Assembly: GCA_038207785.1 (NCBI GenBank)
Contig: JBBQZK010000005.1
Location: 318-64,317, forward strand
DNA length: 64,000 nucleotides
Origin: Candidatus Limnocylindria bacterium
GTDB taxonomy: Bacteria > Chloroflexota > Limnocylindria > P2-11E
Direction: 5' to 3'
The first letter of the stretch is position 1. Each line of letters starts with the position of its first letter. Below, one piece after another: positions 864 to 60,225 of the stretch. The position numbers and the translations under genes are program-made. The notes below the pieces were generated by a model. It ran no database searches, was not told the origin of the DNA, and saw nothing but the letters and a program-made list of their open reading frames with translations.

Positions 864-1366
864 CCCTCCGCCGGCTTGGCGTCGCGGGGATCGTCGCGTG
901 CGTCGTCGCGCTCGCCTGGTATCTCGGCTCGCCCCTCTTCATCCGCACAACCGTGAACGAGGCGTTCCCGACGGGCCGGCCGACCATCGCCGCCGGGAGC
1001 GCGAGCGTCTCGGTGACGGCCCCGCCGCCGTCGCCACCGGTCACGCTCGCATCGGGGGAGCTCGGTCGCGTCGACGCGCTGCACAACGGGACGGGCACCG
1101 TGCTGCTCGTCCGCACTGGGGACGCCGTCGTCCTCCGGTTCGAGAACGTCTCGATCACCAATGCACCGGACGTCCACGTGTATCTGTCGCGCGAGCAGGG
1201 CGGCCAGTGGAACGAGGCCACGAGCGTGTACCTCGGCCCGCTCAAAGCGACGAACGGCTCCTTTAACTACATCGTGCCCCCGGACCAGAACATCTCGCTC
1301 GATCGGAGCGTGGTGGTGTGGTGCCGGCAGTTCTCGGTGCTCGTCACCTGGGCCGACCTGCATTGA
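860..1366 (+). CDS. DM13 domain secreted/membrane-anchored protein
   Basis: N-terminal TM segment and Pro-rich linker, then PDVHVYLS, LGPLKATNGSFNY and VVVWCRQFSV. ATGA overlap with the upstream stop. Confidence 0.8.
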   Translation: MTLRRLGVAGIVACVVALAWYLGSPLFIRTTVNEAFPTGRPTIAAGSASVSVTAPPPSPPVTLASGELGRVDALHNGTGTVLLVRTGDAVVLRFENVSITNAPDVHVYLSREQGGQWNEATSVYLGPLKATNGSFNYIVPPDQNISLDRSVVVWCRQFSVLVTWADLH

Positions 1367-1383
1367 CGCCCGCCGCCACGCAG

Positions 1384-2139
1384 ATGCGCGGCGCGAAGAA
1401 GCGGGTCGCGAAGAAGAAGCCCTACGCCGCGAAGGCGACCCCTGAGCAGAGAGCCCGCGCCCGCGCGATCCTCGGCCGGCTCGTGCACGCGTACCCGGAC
1501 TGGGGCCCGACGCTCGAGTTCGCCGACCCGCTCCAGCTCCTGGTCGCGACGATCCTCGCCGCGCAGGCCCAGGACGAGCGGGTCAACCAGCTGACCCGCA
1601 CGGTCGTATTCCGGAAGTACCGGACCGCTGCCGACTACGTCTCGGCTCGGACCTCCGTCCTCGAGCGCGAGCTGCGGCCCACCGGATTCTTCCGGCAGAA
1701 GACGAAGGCGGTCCAAGGAGCGGCCCTCGGCATCGTCGAACGGTTCGGCGGGGAGGTCCCCGGCGATATGGAAGGCCTCACCTCGCTGCACGGGGTCGGC
1801 CGGAAGACCGCCTCGATCGTCCTGGCGAACGCGTTCGGCGTCCCCTCGATCGCTGTCGACCGGCATGTCGCCCGGGTCGCCGGGCGGCTCCGCTTCACCC
1901 GCCGAGCGGACCCCGACGACATCGAGCAGGACCTCCGAGCGATCTACCCGGAGAAAGATTGGGTCAAGGCGACCTGGAATTTGATCCTGCATGGACGCCG
2001 GATCTGCAATCCGACCCCCAAGTGCCCCGTCTGCCCGGTCATCGATCTCTGTCCCTACCCGCACAAGACGAAGGCGGTCAGCTCCGCGTCGACACCCATC
2101 CGCCGGCCGATCCGCACAGCAACATCAACACGTCGCTGA
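1384..2139 (+). CDS. nth: Endonuclease III (HhH-GPD, 4Fe-4S)
   Basis: LLVATILAAQAQD, HhH LHGVGRKTA, VDRHV, HGRRIC...CPVC...C. ATG at 1384 chosen within ORF 1318..2139. Confidence 0.9.
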   Translation: MRGAKKRVAKKKPYAAKATPEQRARARAILGRLVHAYPDWGPTLEFADPLQLLVATILAAQAQDERVNQLTRTVVFRKYRTAADYVSARTSVLERELRPTGFFRQKTKAVQGAALGIVERFGGEVPGDMEGLTSLHGVGRKTASIVLANAFGVPSIAVDRHVARVAGRLRFTRRADPDDIEQDLRAIYPEKDWVKATWNLILHGRRICNPTPKCPVCPVIDLCPYPHKTKAVSSASTPIRRPIRTATSTRR

Positions 2140-2422
2140 GCACGATGGTCAGCGTGTCAGCGAGGATGTTCGTGACGTTCGCATTGCCCGCGCTCGCCGC
2201 GATAGAGGCGATCACGATCGCGAGCACCGCGACCATGGCGCCGTGATACAGGCCGTGGCGGCCGGCCATGCGCCCCGCGATGTATCCGCCCGCGACGATG
2301 GCCACGAGCGTCCCGATCGCCGGAAACCCCAGGAAAAACGAGAGGATCGCTACCACAACTGATAGCGCCAGGCCGGCGGCCAGCGCGCGGACGTCGAGCT
2401 CGGGCATCGATCGTGTGGCCAT
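2078..2422 (-). CDS. Small multi-pass membrane protein
   Basis: About four hydrophobic segments including GGYIAGRMAG. TACGCT -10-like box 8 nt before the ATG at 2422. Confidence 0.7.
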   Translation of the reverse strand: MATRSMPELDVRALAAGLALSVVVAILSFFLGFPAIGTLVAIVAGGYIAGRMAGRHGLYHGAMVAVLAIVIASIAASAGNANVTNILADTLTIVLSDVLMLLCGSAGGWVSTRS

Positions 2423-2444: not shown

Positions 2445-2482
2445 AAAAAGAAACCGATCCGCTCAGGCCTAGAGCGGATCGG
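2445..2482 (-). terminator. Intrinsic terminator
   Basis: 11-bp stem CCGATCCGCTC/GAGCGGATCGG followed on the minus strand by TTTCTTTTT. Confidence 0.85.
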
Positions 2483-2555
2483 CGAGATCGCGAAAGGTGC
2501 CGGATCGAAGCTATGAATGAGCGACGACTTTCGTCGTCGCTAATGCTTCAAAGAG

Positions 2556-2618
2556 CTACTTCTTCTTCGAGGACTTCTTCTTGGCCGTCTTCTTGGCGGC
2601 CTTCTTCTTCGCTGGCAT
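2556..2618 (-). CDS. 20-aa lysine-rich peptide MPAKKKAAKKTAKKKSSKKK (below the ORF-track cutoff)
   Basis: ATG..TAG of 63 nt. SD AAGGGGGTGA 6 nt upstream. All 11 Lys are AAG. Followed by a hairpin and a terminator. Confidence 0.8.
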   Translation of the reverse strand: MPAKKKAAKKTAKKKSSKKK

Positions 2619-2650
2619 TGGAGATCACCCCCTTCTGGCCACGATTGTTC

Positions 2651-2687
2651 GCTATCTAGACATATCCGTACGCAATATGTCAATAGC
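2651..2687 (-). promoter_or_regulatory. Promoter -35 (TTGACA, 2683-2678) inside an inverted repeat
   Basis: GACATAT-N9-ATATGTC with outer GCTAT/ATAGC arms. The -10 box is not clear. Confidence 0.45.
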
Positions 2688-2926
2688 TACTGCGGTGCGT
2701 CGAGCTCCATCCGGAGGCGGGCGACGATGCGGCTTCGCAGCGCTCCAGGTGCGACATCCTCGTGGCAGCAGTCACGGACCCGGGCCAGGAAGCGCTCTTC
2801 GACGACGAACTCGTCCTCGCAGCCCCCGCAGTCGTCGAGGTGCACGCGCACTTCCGCGACCTCGGTGGACGAGAGCTCCCGGTCGAGGTACGGGTACAGG
2901 CGCTCGAGGCAGTCGGTGCAGTCCAT
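2687..2926 (-). CDS. rsrA: Zinc-binding anti-sigma factor (RsrA/RshA-like)
   Basis: MDC..C, HLDDCGGC (HxxxCxxC ZAS motif) and RDCC. Lies directly after the sigma gene. Confidence 0.85.
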   Translation of the reverse strand: MDCTDCLERLYPYLDRELSSTEVAEVRVHLDDCGGCEDEFVVEERFLARVRDCCHEDVAPGALRSRIVARLRMELDAPQ

Positions 2927-2935
2927 CGCGTACCC

Positions 2936-3517
2936 CTAGTCCGCCGGCCGCGGCATCGACCGCGCGGCAACGATCCCGCGGTCGCGGGCGACGTCGTACA
3001 GGCGCTTCTGGAGGAACTTCCGGCCGCGGTGGAGCCGGCTCATGACCGTCCCGATCGGGATCTCCAGCATCTCGGCGATCTCCTTATAGGAGAACCCCTC
3101 GACGTCCAGGAGGAGGGTCGTCCGGAACTTCTCGGGCAGCGCCTCGAGCGCCTCCTTCACCTCGCTCGAGAGGGTGCTGTCGATGAGCTCCGCCTCCGGG
3201 TCCGGCGACGCCGACCCCGGGCTCACGTTGCGCATGTGCCGGTAGAGGATCGACTCCTCGACGTCGTCGAGCTCGGTCGTCTCCGGCCGCGCCGCCTTGC
3301 GGCGGTACTGGTTGATGAAGGTGTTGGTCAGGATCCGGAACAGCCAGGCCTTCAGGTTGGTCCCGGGCGTGAACTGCTCCTTGAAGCGGAAGGCACGGAT
3401 GTAGGTCTCCTGCACGAGATCCTCGGCTTCGGCTTCCGAGCGGGTCATACGCAGTGCAGTCCGGTACAGCGCGTCAAGGAAGGAGAGCGCCTCGCTCTCG
3501 AAGGGGTCGGCCGCCAT
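2936..3517 (-). CDS. sigR: ECF sigma factor, SigR/SigH-like
   Basis: [56 protein letters not shown]. Confidence 0.88.
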
Positions 3518-3523
3518 CGGCTC

Positions 3524-3560
3524 ACTCTACGCGAACACATCCGCTACCCCCGCGCATTCC
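3524..3560 (-). promoter_or_regulatory. Tandem promoters of the sigma gene: GGAAT-N19-GTT (SigR-type) and TAGAGT -10 box 6 nt before the ATG
   Basis: Read directly: GGAAT at 3560-3556, GTT at 3536-3534, TAGAGT at 3529-3524. Confidence 0.55.
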
Positions 3561-3580: not shown

Positions 3581-5434
3581 ATGAGCAGCGTCGACGAGGA
3601 ACGGAGCCGGAGACTTCGGAGCGTCGATCTGACGTCCGGCCTCGACCGCGTCGCGCTCGCCCGGCTCGCCGCGTACATGGATCCGGTGACCGTGAACGCA
3701 GGCGACGTCCTCTTCAGCGAAGGGGACAGTGGCGACGCGCTGTTCATCGTCGTGCAGGGCACGTTCGGGGTATTCGCCGGACCCGACGGCCAGCGGCTCA
3801 ACACCATTGGCCCGGGTCATTACGTGGGCGAGCTCGCGCTGCTGATCGACGAGCCGCGGACCGCGACGATCCGCGCCGACAGCGACGGCGAGGTGCTGCG
3901 TCTGGAGCGCCAGCAGTTCGTCGAGCTGCTCGATCGCGACGCGGGCGCGGCGAAAGCGGTCGCGACGACGTTGGCCCGACGGCTTCGGCGCCGCGACGGA
4001 GCGTTGCCCGATGAGAGCGCGGCCGTCGTCATTGGGCCGCTCCGCGCCGTGAAGCCCTCCCGCCGTCCGGTGACAAAGGCTGTCGGTCTCATCCTCGCGG
4101 CCGGTCTCGTGAGCCTGACGCTCTCACCGCTCATCGACCTCGCTCAATGGCGCTTCTCGCTGCTCCTCCTCGCGGCGGTCGTGCTCTGGATGACCGAGCC
4201 GGTGCCGAACGTCGTGGTATCGCTCGGGTTGGTCGCGGCCTTGATCGTGAGCGGCATCGTGCCGCCCTACGCCACCGTGCACGGCTTCGCGTCGGTGAAC
4301 TGGGTCTTCGTGCTCTCGGTGCTCGGTGTCGCAGCCGCCGTCGCGCGATCGGGTCTGCTGCTGCGCCTCGGGCTCCTCCTCATCGAGCGCGTGCCCGCAC
4401 GGATCGGGTGGCAATCCGCGGCGTTCCTCATCACCGGCATCGTGCTGACGCCGATGCTGCCACTGGCCATGGCCCGCGCGGCGATCACCGCGCCGCTCGC
4501 GGAAGGGGTCGCCGACACGATGAAGCTGCCCGAGCGCTCGCCGGCGAGCGCGACGCTCGGGCTCTCGGCCTGGATCGGCTCGGGACCGTTCATCTTCCTG
4601 TTCCTCAACGGCTCTCCGGTCTGCCTACTGGCCTGGAGCCTCATGCCCCTGAAGGACCAGGCGCAGTTCACGTGGCTGCAGTGGCTCATCTCGGCCGCTC
4701 CGCTCGCGGCGATCATCGCCATCGGCTCATTCTTCGCGATGCGGGTGCTGATGCCGAGCGGGCACGTCGCCCCACGGTCGCGCGGGCCGCTGCGCCTGCA
4801 GCGGGCGATCCTCGGGCCTCCGTCCCGACGCGAGCTCGCGATCCTTGTGATCGTCCTCCTCATGCTCGCGGGCTGGATCGTGGCGCCGACGTTCCTGTGG
4901 TCGCCGGGACTGGTCGCGCTCGTCGCATTCATCGCCGTGATGATCGCGACGGGTGTATCGGACCTTCGGAACCTGGACTGGGAGTACCTCGTGTTCTTCG
5001 GCGTCGCGCTTTCGGTCGCCGATGTCGCGGAGGGTCTGCGCCTGGACAAGATCGTCGGCGAGAGCGCGGCCTCATTCCTGGCGCAGCTTGGCCTCGGCGG
5101 TCCGGCCTTCGTCATCCTCGCGGGCGTGCTCACTGTCGTCGTGAAGTCGGTGCTTCCCGCGGATCAGGCGATCCTGCTGCTGTCGCTCGCGCTCATTCCG
5201 GTCGCGACAGCGGTCGGCGTCAGCCCGTGGCTGGCCGCGGTCGCGATCCTCGCGCTGGGCCTCAGCTGGCACGTGCCGGCGCAGTCGCCCGAGTACCTCG
5301 TCGCGTATGGCGCGGGCCACGAACGCCTCTGGTCGCACGCGCAGGCACGTCGCATCGCGTTCGCCTATGCGGCGGTCGCGCTCGCCGGCCTCGCACTCTC
5401 GCTCCCGTACTGGCATCTGCTCGGCTACCTCTAG
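3581..5434 (+). CDS. cNMP-binding domain fused to a DASS/SLC13-family transporter
   Basis: LFSEGDSGD..GELALL..PRTATIRA, then about 12-14 TM segments with WMTEPVP, SGLLLRLGL and TPMLP..MAR. Confidence 0.8.
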   Translation: MSSVDEERSRRLRSVDLTSGLDRVALARLAAYMDPVTVNAGDVLFSEGDSGDALFIVVQGTFGVFAGPDGQRLNTIGPGHYVGELALLIDEPRTATIRADSDGEVLRLERQQFVELLDRDAGAAKAVATTLARRLRRRDGALPDESAAVVIGPLRAVKPSRRPVTKAVGLILAAGLVSLTLSPLIDLAQWRFSLLLLAAVVLWMTEPVPNVVVSLGLVAALIVSGIVPPYATVHGFASVNWVFVLSVLGVAAAVARSGLLLRLGLLLIERVPARIGWQSAAFLITGIVLTPMLPLAMARAAITAPLAEGVADTMKLPERSPASATLGLSAWIGSGPFIFLFLNGSPVCLLAWSLMPLKDQAQFTWLQWLISAAPLAAIIAIGSFFAMRVLMPSGHVAPRSRGPLRLQRAILGPPSRRELAILVIVLLMLAGWIVAPTFLWSPGLVALVAFIAVMIATGVSDLRNLDWEYLVFFGVALSVADVAEGLRLDKIVGESAASFLAQLGLGGPAFVILAGVLTVVVKSVLPADQAILLLSLALIPVATAVGVSPWLAAVAILALGLSWHVPAQSPEYLVAYGAGHERLWSHAQARRIAFAYAAVALAGLALSLPYWHLLGYL

Positions 5435-58541: not shown

Positions 58542-59221
58542 GCGAAGCCCTCGCCCTGGTGCGCTCTCCCGCGCGCGGCGCGGCCCGCGTTCTGGCAACA
58601 GGCCGCCTGGCCATCGCGGTGGCGCTCGTGGTCATCGCGACCGCCGTCGCCGCCGTCAGCGCGGTCCGCTTCGCAGCCGATGTGCCGGTCAGCACCTTCC
58701 TCTACGGCGAGGGCCGCAGTCCGGCGATCGCCGCGCTGATCGAGACGCTCGGCCGCGATCGGGCGGCGGTGATCGGCTACCTCGTCGAACAGATCTGGAC
58801 CGCCGTCGTCGTCGTCACGGCGTTCTCGCCGCTTCTTGTGTGGATCCTGGGTGCGACGGCGGTGCACGCTGCGGCGCGCATCGATGGGACGCAGCGGCCG
58901 TTCGGGCCGATGTTCGTGCTCCTCGGGTACGCGACGGCGCTCACGCGCATCCCGGCCGATGGCGCCGCGGCGATCCTCGGGAGCGGCAGGACGGCCGCGG
59001 CGCAGGTCGCGCAGCTCATCGGTCTCGCGTGCCTGATCTGGCTCGGGACCATCACCTGGCGGGCGATCGAAGCGCACTACGGTCTTCCGCCCCGCCGCGC
59101 CGGCGTGGTGCTGCTCATCGCGGTGGTGCTCTTCTACGTCGTGCCGCTGGTCCTCATCGTCGCCGCATTCGTCGCGATCCTCGTCGCGGCGATCCTCCTG
59201 GACTACGTGCCCGGGCTCTAG
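58538..59221 (+). CDS. Membrane protein, Yip1-like
   Basis: About five TM segments. GTGA-coupled to the HDAC gene. Confidence 0.6.
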   Translation: MSEALALVRSPARGAARVLATGRLAIAVALVVIATAVAAVSAVRFAADVPVSTFLYGEGRSPAIAALIETLGRDRAAVIGYLVEQIWTAVVVVTAFSPLLVWILGATAVHAAARIDGTQRPFGPMFVLLGYATALTRIPADGAAAILGSGRTAAAQVAQLIGLACLIWLGTITWRAIEAHYGLPPRRAGVVLLIAVVLFYVVPLVLIVAAFVAILVAAILLDYVPGL

Positions 59222-60225
59222 CCCTCGTCCGAGCTCACCGCCGCGACGAGCGCGAGGTCACCGGCCCGGACCGACTTCGGATCGAACTTCCGGACGCTCG
59301 CGGCCATCTTGCCGAGGGCCTCCGCCATGGTCATCGGCGGCGGGGCGCCGCGCTTCTGCGGGATCCAGCGCACCGGGTTGCAGCGCGCCACGACCACGGC
59401 GCGCAGGTACGGGCTCTTGAAGCCCATCTCCTGCAGCGTCTTCACGTGCGCCGCGACGCGGTCGTCGATGTCGAGGAGGCGCCGCCCCCACTGATCGCGC
59501 TGTCGCAGCGCCGCGGGCAGCGTGCCGTCCAGGAACACGTCCACCCGGCGGAGCATCGACTGGTACGAGGACCCAGCGAACCGGCCGCGCTCCTCATACG
59601 CCGTGCCGAGCGTGAGGAAGTGCGCTGCCTCGAATGCGACCGCGTGATCCGTCTCTTTCGATCGCGGCCGCTCTTTGGCGAGCGAGCGGGCCATCCGAAT
59701 GACCTCCATGCTCCGGTCGCGAAGGTTGTGCGCCTTCTCGGTGTTGAGCGGGAGGATCCGATATGCGATCTGCGGGTCCGCGACCAGCAGCGCGCTCACC
59801 GTGCGCAGCCCGAGCTTCTTCGCCGCCGCCAGGCGGTGCCGTCCGTTCGGCGAGCTGAAGCCCTCCCGGCCCGCGACCGCGATGACCGGGTCGAGGAACA
59901 CGCCCACGGCGCCGATCGCGTCGGACAGACGATCGGCGTGCACCTTCGAGAGGTCGCGCTGGAACTCGGTCGCCTCGATCGATCGCAGCGGGAGGCTGAC
60001 GAACAGGATGGGGGAGCTGCCGTAGGGATCGCGGTACGCGGCCAGCGTGGCGCCTCCGGCCTTCGTGACGAGCCGTGCGAGCTCCGCGACGCTGTCGTCG
60101 GTCAGGTCGATCGCGCTCTCCTGCGCCTCGGGGCCGCGCGGGGCAGCCGGTCCCCGCTTCTTCGTGGTCTTGCGAGTGGTCTTCTTTCCGGTCACCTTCG
60201 CGGCGGTCGTCTTCTTCGCGGGCAT
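59218..60225 (-). CDS. ParB/Srx N-terminal-domain protein with a Lys-rich N-tail
   Basis: FQRDLS..H..RL, LDPVIAV, PNGRHRL.A, LNTEKAHNL. Confidence 0.7.
   Translation of the reverse strand: MPAKKTTAAKVTGKKTTRKTTKKRGPAAPRGPEAQESAIDLTDDSVAELARLVTKAGGATLAAYRDPYGSSPILFVSLPLRSIEATEFQRDLSKVHADRLSDAIGAVGVFLDPVIAVAGREGFSSPNGRHRLAAAKKLGLRTVSALLVADPQIAYRILPLNTEKAHNLRDRSMEVIRMARSLAKERPRSKETDHAVAFEAAHFLTLGTAYEERGRFAGSSYQSMLRRVDVFLDGTLPAALRQRDQWGRRLLDIDDRVAAHVKTLQEMGFKSPYLRAVVVARCNPVRWIPQKRGAPPPMTMAEALGKMAASVRKFDPKSVRAGDLALVAAVSSDEG

Follow-up and report, generated by a model that had tools for sequence, protein, structure and literature searches.

A putative polylysine micropeptide gene with a structured 3' end, downstream of a SigR/RsrA-type gene pair in Candidatus Limnocylindria

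The question raised by this locus is what a lysine-rich open reading frame (ORF) of only 20 codons, lying between an anti-sigma factor gene and a small membrane protein gene, stands for: a gene in its own right, part of a regulatory RNA or leader, or nothing at all. The ORF is on the minus strand of a 64,000-nt stretch of Candidatus Limnocylindria bacterium (assembly GCA_038207785.1, contig JBBQZK010000005.1, positions 318 to 64,317 of the forward strand), and this whole stretch is called the window in the following. Its product, MPAKKKAAKKTAKKKSSKKK, contains 11 lysines among 20 residues. The reading that we favour, with a probability of roughly 0.55, is a free-standing, independently transcribed micro-gene whose product would be a 20-residue Lys/Ala/Ser/Thr polycation that probably binds nucleic acids. 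A first-pass annotation of the same DNA had described the Lys-rich minus-strand ORF, a near-perfect Shine-Dalgarno (SD) sequence 6 nt ahead of it, a 9-bp hairpin with a GAAA loop, an intrinsic terminator, and the position of all of these directly 3' of a SigR/RsrA pair. All were recovered on the reading strand (Table 1); the terminator was also called independently by a terminator scan, and in the pair the anti-sigma factor scored above the cut-off of the RsrA model and the sigma factor below that of the SigH_actino model.

That the ORF is a gene is supported first of all by its relatives. Comparison of the sigma factor protein identified 30 related Limnocylindria loci at 73-95% identity, the next-best matches being from Acidimicrobiia at 55-62%. 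An SD-preceded, Lys-rich small ORF followed rsrA in 29 of these 30 loci, the remaining one being a truncated contig, and was found in 0 of 50 Acidimicrobiia loci. A control scan of 361 kb of Acidimicrobiia loci around homologous sigma genes gave no such ORF, the 1.13 Mb of Limnocylindria flanks contained none besides the unit itself, and within the window the micropeptide ORF is the sole Lys-rich small ORF. Species-representative genomes and soil metagenomes were then searched with a pattern derived from an invariant stretch at the 3' end of the unit (see below). The pattern was found on 75 contigs of species-representative genomes, in single copy on each, and on at least 120 metagenome contigs. 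The 75 contigs were nearly all labelled Limnocylindria or Chloroflexota, and the few other labels look mis-binned; six unit-bearing, syntenic contigs were filed under Thermoanaerobaculia, Saccharimonadales, Acidiferrales and Bathyarchaeia metagenome-assembled genomes (MAGs), probably through mis-binning. Start, SD and frame, whose conservation in relatives the first-pass annotation had named as the check on its proposal, were kept in 72/72 untruncated genome loci and 109/110 untruncated metagenome loci. The exception, contig WNFM01123120.1, has a deletion that strips the end of the ORF and joins it to the hairpin, and is either a real variant or an assembly error. The metagenomes were also scanned for transcript-like short contigs, and all matches were DNA contigs of at least 1 kb.

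The variation within the ORF is that of a coding sequence. All 102 genome-contig loci compared, some contigs being entered twice, have an intact ORF, with 48 distinct DNA sequences encoding 31 peptides of 13-23 residues. DNA variants of the same peptide differ almost solely at third codon positions, apart from one switch of a serine codon between TCN and AGC; length changes comprise whole codons, and the stop alternates between TAG and TAA. The peptide alphabet of these Limnocylindria loci is restricted to M, P, A, K, S, T and H, with G or V occurring very rarely. The peptides are about 55% lysine, have no acidic or hydrophobic residues and, despite a G+C content of about 70%, contain no arginine in any of the 31. 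The translation signal is equally distinct, as most relatives read GGAGGTGATC at the SD, the full complement of the 16S 3' tail, and GG[AG]GGTGAT occurs just twice within the window. Start, exceptionally strong SD, frame and amino-acid make-up are maintained across the whole class while the DNA changes synonymously. A functionless chance ORF in a purine-rich spacer, as might be supposed of a very short, low-complexity ORF known here from sequence alone, has a negligible probability: it is already contradicted by the comparison, in which start, SD, frame and composition are kept in more than 200 loci with synonymous patterns and negative controls. The unannotated micropeptide gene is therefore very probably real, and the earlier claim of a small gene overlooked by ORF callers holds on the grounds of conserved start, SD, frame and synonymous variation.

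No existing record of the peptide was found. It had no match in Pfam or NCBIfam, for whose models 20 low-complexity residues are too few, and no chain in the PDB matched at E <= 10. An exact look-up of ten peptide variants in a collection of 15 billion proteins found none of them, and a full-text literature search returned no description of such polylysine micropeptides. A small ORF of Sinorhizobium that is enriched in Thr and Lys codons was considered and is unrelated.

The ORF is the centre of a unit of about 200 nt, reaching from a promoter-like block (2683) through the terminator end (2445), whose predicted folding energy beats 200 of 200 shuffles (z = -3.1). In the alignment of 29 loci the order from 5' to 3' is an invariant TTGACAT, about 15 nt, TGTGTCTA(T/G)ATA, the invariant GTGGCCAG, GG(A/G)GGTGAT, the ATG 5-8 nt further on, the ORF of 13-23 codons, the hairpin (hairpin 1) and an invariant stretch of about 50 nt, G(G/A)CACCTTTCGC.A.C.C.CCGATCCGC ... 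GCGGATCGGT plus a T-run, which comprises a single-stranded element and the terminator. Upstream, TTGACAT and TG.TCTA.AT are invariant or nearly so. The promoter-like block starts 4 nt past the rsrA stop codon. It is not called by a simple sigma-70 scan, because the second hexamer lacks the final T. A SigR-type promoter was also looked for: inspection found no GGAAT-N18-GTT before the small ORF or the membrane gene, and only the sigma gene has one. The unit probably stands alone, with its own promoter-like block and terminator and a downstream gene that has its own -10-like element. As no terminator lies between rsrA and the unit, read-through from the sigR-rsrA operon is possible.

Table 1. 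Features of the unit and its surroundings, in window coordinates
Feature	Position	Strand	Details
Micropeptide ORF	2556..2618	-	ATG 2618-2616, TAG 2558-2556; 20 residues
Extended SD AAGGGGGTGA	2634-2625	-	6 nt ahead of ATG
5' untranslated region (UTR) GTGGCCAG and SD AAGGGGGTGA	2625..2642	-	Invariant alignment columns
Promoter-like block	2653..2683	-	TTGACA 2683-2678, about 19 nt, then TGTCTAGATA (to 2653)
Hairpin 1	2520..2541	-	A-GCGACGAC-GAAA-GTCGTCGC-T; 9-bp stem, GAAA tetraloop
Invariant single-stranded element GGCACCTTTCGCGA	2488..2501	-	14 nt, between hairpin 1 and terminator
Intrinsic terminator (T2)	2445..2483	-	12-bp G+C-rich hairpin, stem GCCGATCCGCTC / GAGCGGATCGGT (2483-2472 / 2464-2453), then TTTCTTTTT to 2445
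RsrA-type ZAS anti-sigma factor	2687..2926	-	TIGR03988, 68.9 bits (cut-off 62.5); PF13490 zf-HC2 match
SigR/SigH-like ECF sigma factor	2936..3517	-	Best match TIGR02947 SigH_actino, below its cut-off
SigR/SigH-type autoregulatory promoter-like motif	3534..3560	-	GGAAT (3560-3556)-N19-GTT (3536-3534), just 5' of sigma ATG (3517)
Small membrane protein gene	2078..2422	-	Weak DUF3792/TIGR04086 match; 3' of unit
-10-like TACGCT of membrane gene	2436-2431	-	TANNNT type, 8 nt before ATG
Endonuclease III (Nth)	1318-2139	+	HhH-GPD domain; convergent to membrane gene
Cyclic-nucleotide-binding/transporter fusion	3581-5434	+	617 residues; divergent from sigma gene
Protein with Lys-rich start	59218-60225	-	335 residues

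The peptide type is not confined to this locus. Genomes were searched with the pattern GGAGG, a gap of 4-12 nt and M-[A/P]-A-K-K-K-x-x-K-K, which gave at least 120 genome matches against about 0.005 expected from a uniform-composition estimate. Among the matches listed, 78 were ORFs of 11-28 codons that stay Lys-rich through to the stop; these came from Dormibacterota, Eisenbacteria, Binatia, Acidobacteriota, Nitrospirota, Verrucomicrobiota, Myxococcota-like MAGs, CPR and DPANN archaea. Their flanks are conserved within each lineage, and several genomes carry two or tandem copies. The other matches are longer proteins of the HU, SWIB or long H1-like kind, in which the motif forms the N-terminal tail. 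The start M[AP]AKKKAAKK was found as such a tail on HU and SWIB-domain proteins of other genomes. At one locus a polylysine ORF lies directly 5' of a SWIB gene with an identical N-terminal sequence. Across phyla, lysine codon choice follows genome GC (r = -0.76), AAA accounting for about half in low-GC carriers and being nearly absent in high-GC ones; lysine itself is thus conserved and not an AAG-rich RNA string. Outside the part fixed by the search pattern the residues are 60% K and 21% A, the rest being T, S, P and G, with no acidic or aromatic residue. Mutational drift from AAG would lead to E, Q, R, N or M, whereas the spacers are A, T, S, P and G, and this argues for selection on peptide properties and not on the mere reading of Lys codons.

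Particular lineages illustrate the wider pattern. In Terriglobales, 83 contigs from species-representative genomes code for precisely the 13-residue peptide MPAKKKAAKKKKH, two genomes having two copies. The 80 copies read use 31 different codings, with all variation at third positions or in the stop; an SD precedes all 80, a T-run follows within 110 nt in 69 of them, and a hairpin of variable sequence was seen in the copies inspected. This layout of SD, 13-codon ORF, hairpin and terminator is the architecture of the unit in the window, and comparable units are present in Dormibacterota, Eisenbacteria and Binatia and at another locus in Limnocylindria. This second, paralogous Limnocylindria locus has a UDG-family glycosylase, HTH_17, a small ORF (e.g. 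MPAKKKAAKKTAKKKAKKK), a G+C-rich hairpin and a CAP-domain secreted protein, and it co-occurs with the rsrA-linked copy in at least two MAGs (DATCOD01 and JBDTMY01). In Eisenbacteria (8 loci) and Binatia-type genomes (3 loci) the small ORF was observed about 320-470 nt 3' of an operon for a histidine kinase and an NtrC-type sigma-54 activator; no recognisable sigma-54 promoter precedes the small ORF at these loci. Tentatively, and at somewhat less than even odds, we would place the locus in a widespread, unrecognised class of ultra-short (11-28 residues) polylysine genes. Their products would be free polycations of the 'histone-tail' kind, with a role under stress in organising or protecting nucleic acids or polyphosphate, and in at least some lineages the RNAs that carry them would have a second, RNA-level function. 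The marks of the class would be an SD of great strength, a terminator conserved by lineage and a hairpin whose sequence varies, for which compensatory changes were measured in Limnocylindria only. It appears to range over many, mostly uncultured phyla, largely of soil and sediment, including Limnocylindria, Terriglobales, Dormibacterota, Eisenbacteria, Binatia and some CPR and DPANN.

The 3' end of the Limnocylindria unit is conserved in two different ways. Hairpin 1 is present in all 72 unique transcripts (62 distinct sequences), often with GNRA or UNCG tetraloops. In a covariance-model alignment of 74 loci, compensatory changes were seen in eight of its nine pairs and 94% of cells pair; this covariation was reached by 0 of 500 shuffles and is far above shuffled and slid controls. 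The structured 3' end that the first-pass annotation had assigned to the ORF is accordingly under selection. In the terminator, nine of ten stem pairs never vary among 70 distinct sequences, the 14-nt element is likewise invariant, and CACCTTTCGC is the same in every locus, while neighbouring protein genes diverge to 30-75% identity. Such invariance points to constraint on the sequence itself and not on structure alone, and no explanation for it was found. A second frame or antisense ORF was considered for the invariant 3' block and rejected, as its variable positions have no codon-like spacing; TGGCAC of the 3' element was rejected as a sigma-54 promoter, since in neither Limnocylindria nor Eisenbacteria is the -12 GC correctly spaced.

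An RNA-level role has to be weighed at this point. The unit could be a dual-function or mainly RNA-level element, namely a small RNA (sRNA) in which the invariant single-stranded element GGCACCUUUCGCGA base-pairs with a conserved partner or binds to it. The small ORF would then either add a further activity or serve to link the making or the stability of the RNA to translation. The element and the terminator stem are invariant where the sigma factor falls to about 67-75% identity, a tighter constraint than that on the ORF, and folding predictions place the element in an unpaired stretch flanked by hairpins, as is usual for seeds. It is also never present without the upstream ORF, in genome and metagenome copies alike. 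In a sister clade a T-run follows hairpin 1, which may be a first terminator that the clade of the window does not have, and hairpin 1 starts 4-15 nt past the stop codon, so that a ribosome ending translation there could control whether transcription reads on into the 3' domain. Against this stand the comparison across phyla, where the 3' sequences are unrelated and the peptide type is common to all, and the lack of conservation of the AAG string. Furthermore, neither the window nor 18 loci from other phyla matched an Rfam family, and a search of the window for complements of the element returned one exact match, the element itself, with no convincing target (near matches were not inspected). 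We consider this dual-function or mainly RNA-level explanation rather unlikely.

Pairing within the unit was also considered. Part of the 3' element, CACCUUUC, is similar to the 16S anti-SD, and a possible 7-bp duplex with the SD would allow autoregulation. Duplex energies between the SD and the 3' UTR in 78 units are, however, no better than those of shuffles (median z = -0.16; +0.69 for the window), so that autoregulation is not supported, and the result also counts against the RNA-level explanation. Pairing of the 5' UTR (GUGGCCAG) with CUGGCAC of the 3' element was rejected because it shows no covariation and natural variants break the pairs.

The unit also has the appearance of a leader: a single amino acid dominates its short ORF, hairpins and a terminator come next, and a same-strand gene begins 23 nt beyond the end of the T-tract. 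Polycysteine small ORFs are attenuators in mycobacteria, and in the same manner the run of Lys codons could sense charged tRNA-Lys or ribosome capacity and control termination before the membrane gene; the second Limnocylindria locus, which has no clear T-run before its downstream gene, would fit this. The membrane gene, however, has its own -10-like TACGCT at the spacing of a leaderless gene, and both the motif and its distance of 7-8 nt from the ATG are kept in relatives. At the position expected for this ATG the sister clade has ATC, and the start codon there is ambiguous. Folds of single sequences and of the alignment gave no conserved antiterminator pairing, and the arms of hairpin 1 vary freely without change in the ORF. 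With TACGCT in place and no conserved competing pairing, a leader for the next gene is quite unlikely. Three further points agree with this: the downstream genes differ among lineages and have no link to lysine, most units of other phyla close with strong terminators, and a pure codon sensor would not need spacers limited to A, S, T, P and G.

In its size, its extreme basicity and the great strength of its translation signal the micropeptide is like tiny ribosomal proteins, and it could be a lineage-specific ribosomal or ribosome-associated peptide that fills a pocket in the rRNA, comparable to bL37, bS22, bTHX or eL41. Conservation across the class, usually in one or two copies, is what would be expected of such a protein. 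We regard it as very unlikely, because no ribosomal-protein gene was found among 100 sampled neighbours (a seryl-tRNA synthetase was found in two) and because the length varies. The peptide matched no NCBIfam ribosomal model or PDB chain, and 31 distinct low-complexity peptides of 13-23 residues within one class, with no arginine or aromatic residues, are not in keeping with such a role.

The surroundings of the unit were characterised as follows. The anti-sigma factor, a zinc-binding one, carries HLDDCGGC, that is, the HxxxCxxC motif of ZAS proteins; it adjoins an ECF sigma factor gene, and this in turn is preceded by a GGAAT...GTT motif, so that all three characters of the SigR/RsrA group were found in the context genes. 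The order sigma, rsrA, unit and convergent nth is kept in about 75 species genomes, and the membrane gene, which diverges fast, was detected between unit and nth in most loci. The 617-residue protein encoded divergently from the sigma gene has an N-terminal cyclic-nucleotide-binding domain fused to a DASS/Na-sulfate-symporter-type transporter, and its gene is kept in close relatives. Two other proteins of the window have Lys-rich N-terminal parts. Nth has an extension (…MRGAKKRVAKKKPYAAKATPEQ…) ahead of its HhH-GPD domain, and the 335-residue protein begins with MPAKKTTAAKVTGKKTTRKTTKKRG…, a tail that resembles the micropeptide, and has no Pfam match in its remainder.

For the micropeptide itself, the favoured reading as a nucleic-acid-binding polycation is based on its H1-tail-like composition (lysine, not arginine), on the occurrence of the same motif as a tail of DNA-binding proteins, and on neighbourhoods with glycosylase and redox genes. 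DNA glycosylases recur as neighbours (nth, UDG and, in two further lineages, Tag), as do redox and stress genes (SigR/RsrA, AhpC/TSA and MerR). The mRNA would be transcribed constitutively from its own sigma-70-like promoter, and read-through from the SigR-dependent sigR-rsrA operon would make it inducible by thiol-oxidative stress as well. This very short mRNA would be stabilised and ended by the two hairpins at its 3' end. The peptide would be strongly expressed, soluble and flexible, and would serve in the manner of an H1 tail as the counter-ion of a polyanion to which it binds, most likely DNA or the nucleoid, with RNA, ribosomes or polyphosphate as alternatives. It may be viewed as a detached version of the Lys-rich tails of HU, SWIB and Nth-type proteins in these lineages, and through the invariant 3' element the RNA may have a further function.

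Several points weigh against this reading. The peptide is a low-complexity sequence of 13-23 residues and variable length without recognisable fold or homology, and selection on the translation of Lys codons is not fully separable from selection on the peptide. The carriers are uncultured, and gene and peptide are known here only as sequences. The link to neighbouring genes for DNA repair and stress is a post hoc observation from few lineages, and Blast clustering and Pfam analysis of the neighbours gave no universal partner gene. The -10 assignment within the promoter-like block is uncertain. Finally, the strongest conservation at the locus is in the 14-nt element and nine of ten terminator pairs and not in the ORF, so that the primary function could lie in the RNA. 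For the proposals of the first-pass annotation the outcome is mixed. The real gene, with conserved frame and SD and a structured 3' end, stood; its likening to histone H1 is supported by composition, by the M[AP]AKKKAAKK tails on HU and SWIB and by the Lys-rich tails of Nth and the 335-residue protein, but homology is not demonstrable. Nucleoid condensation or RNA binding is a plausible proposal. For an sRNA role there is the invariant single-stranded element, but no target was found in the window. Stress induction is only possible: the block is of the TTGACA and not the SigR type, and SigR-driven read-through could add expression. That the locus belongs to a much wider class, spread over many phyla, had escaped the first-pass annotation.

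Gene callers discard such ORFs, trypsin would destroy the peptide in standard proteomics and the 15-billion-protein collection does not contain it, so that a class of probably abundant polycations may have been overlooked. Should DNA, RNA or polyphosphate be bound by these peptides, they would represent a new and very simple factor organising the nucleoid or condensates in dominant soil phyla, with an evolutionary link to the Lys-rich tails of HU, SWIB and repair enzymes. The locus also holds an unusually invariant RNA/terminator element of 50 nt.

Four kinds of known system can be compared with the unit. Like the leader-peptide attenuators (his, thr, leu, trp and the mycobacterial polycysteine type), it has a short ORF rich in one amino acid, a hairpin and a terminator; it differs in that no antiterminator was found, in that the downstream gene is preceded by a promoter-like element of its own and has no tie to lysine, and in that the unit stands alone in other lineages. 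Tiny ribosomal proteins (bL37, bS22, bTHX and eL41) are likewise shorter than 40 residues and highly positive, with strong expression signals, but they are fixed in form, contain arginine and are recognised by models, whereas the micropeptide varies in length, matches none of these models and is unlinked to ribosomal-protein genes. Dual-function sRNAs, such as B. subtilis SR1/SR1P, S. aureus RNAIII/hld and E. coli SgrS/SgrT and AzuCR/AzuC (reviewed in PMC12612679), resemble the unit in that its predicted transcript of about 200 nt combines a small ORF with a non-coding part which is conserved and structured and has a terminator at its end. The ORF of the unit is, however, far shorter and of lower complexity, no base-pairing target was found in the window, and it is the peptide type and not the RNA part that is shared across phyla. 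The remaining group consists of H1-like proteins and tails (Chlamydia Hc1/Hc2, Pseudomonas AlgP and the C-terminal tails of HupB of mycobacteria and HupS of Streptomyces), of which AlgP and Hc2 are Lys-rich H1-like proteins (PMC9239181, PMC2848022). Homology with them is not demonstrable. The micropeptide shares their AKK/PAKK-type units and their preference for lysine over arginine, and likewise has no acidic or hydrophobic residues; whereas they exceed 100 residues or are attached to a folded domain, it is free-standing, has 13-23 residues without a long repeat array, and belongs to a compact transcription unit of its own with a conserved structured 3' end. Hence, what appears to be new is a type of tiny polylysine gene, common in uncultured and largely soil-dwelling phyla, of which no description was found and which would be akin to the known H1-like proteins, microproteins and dual-function RNAs.

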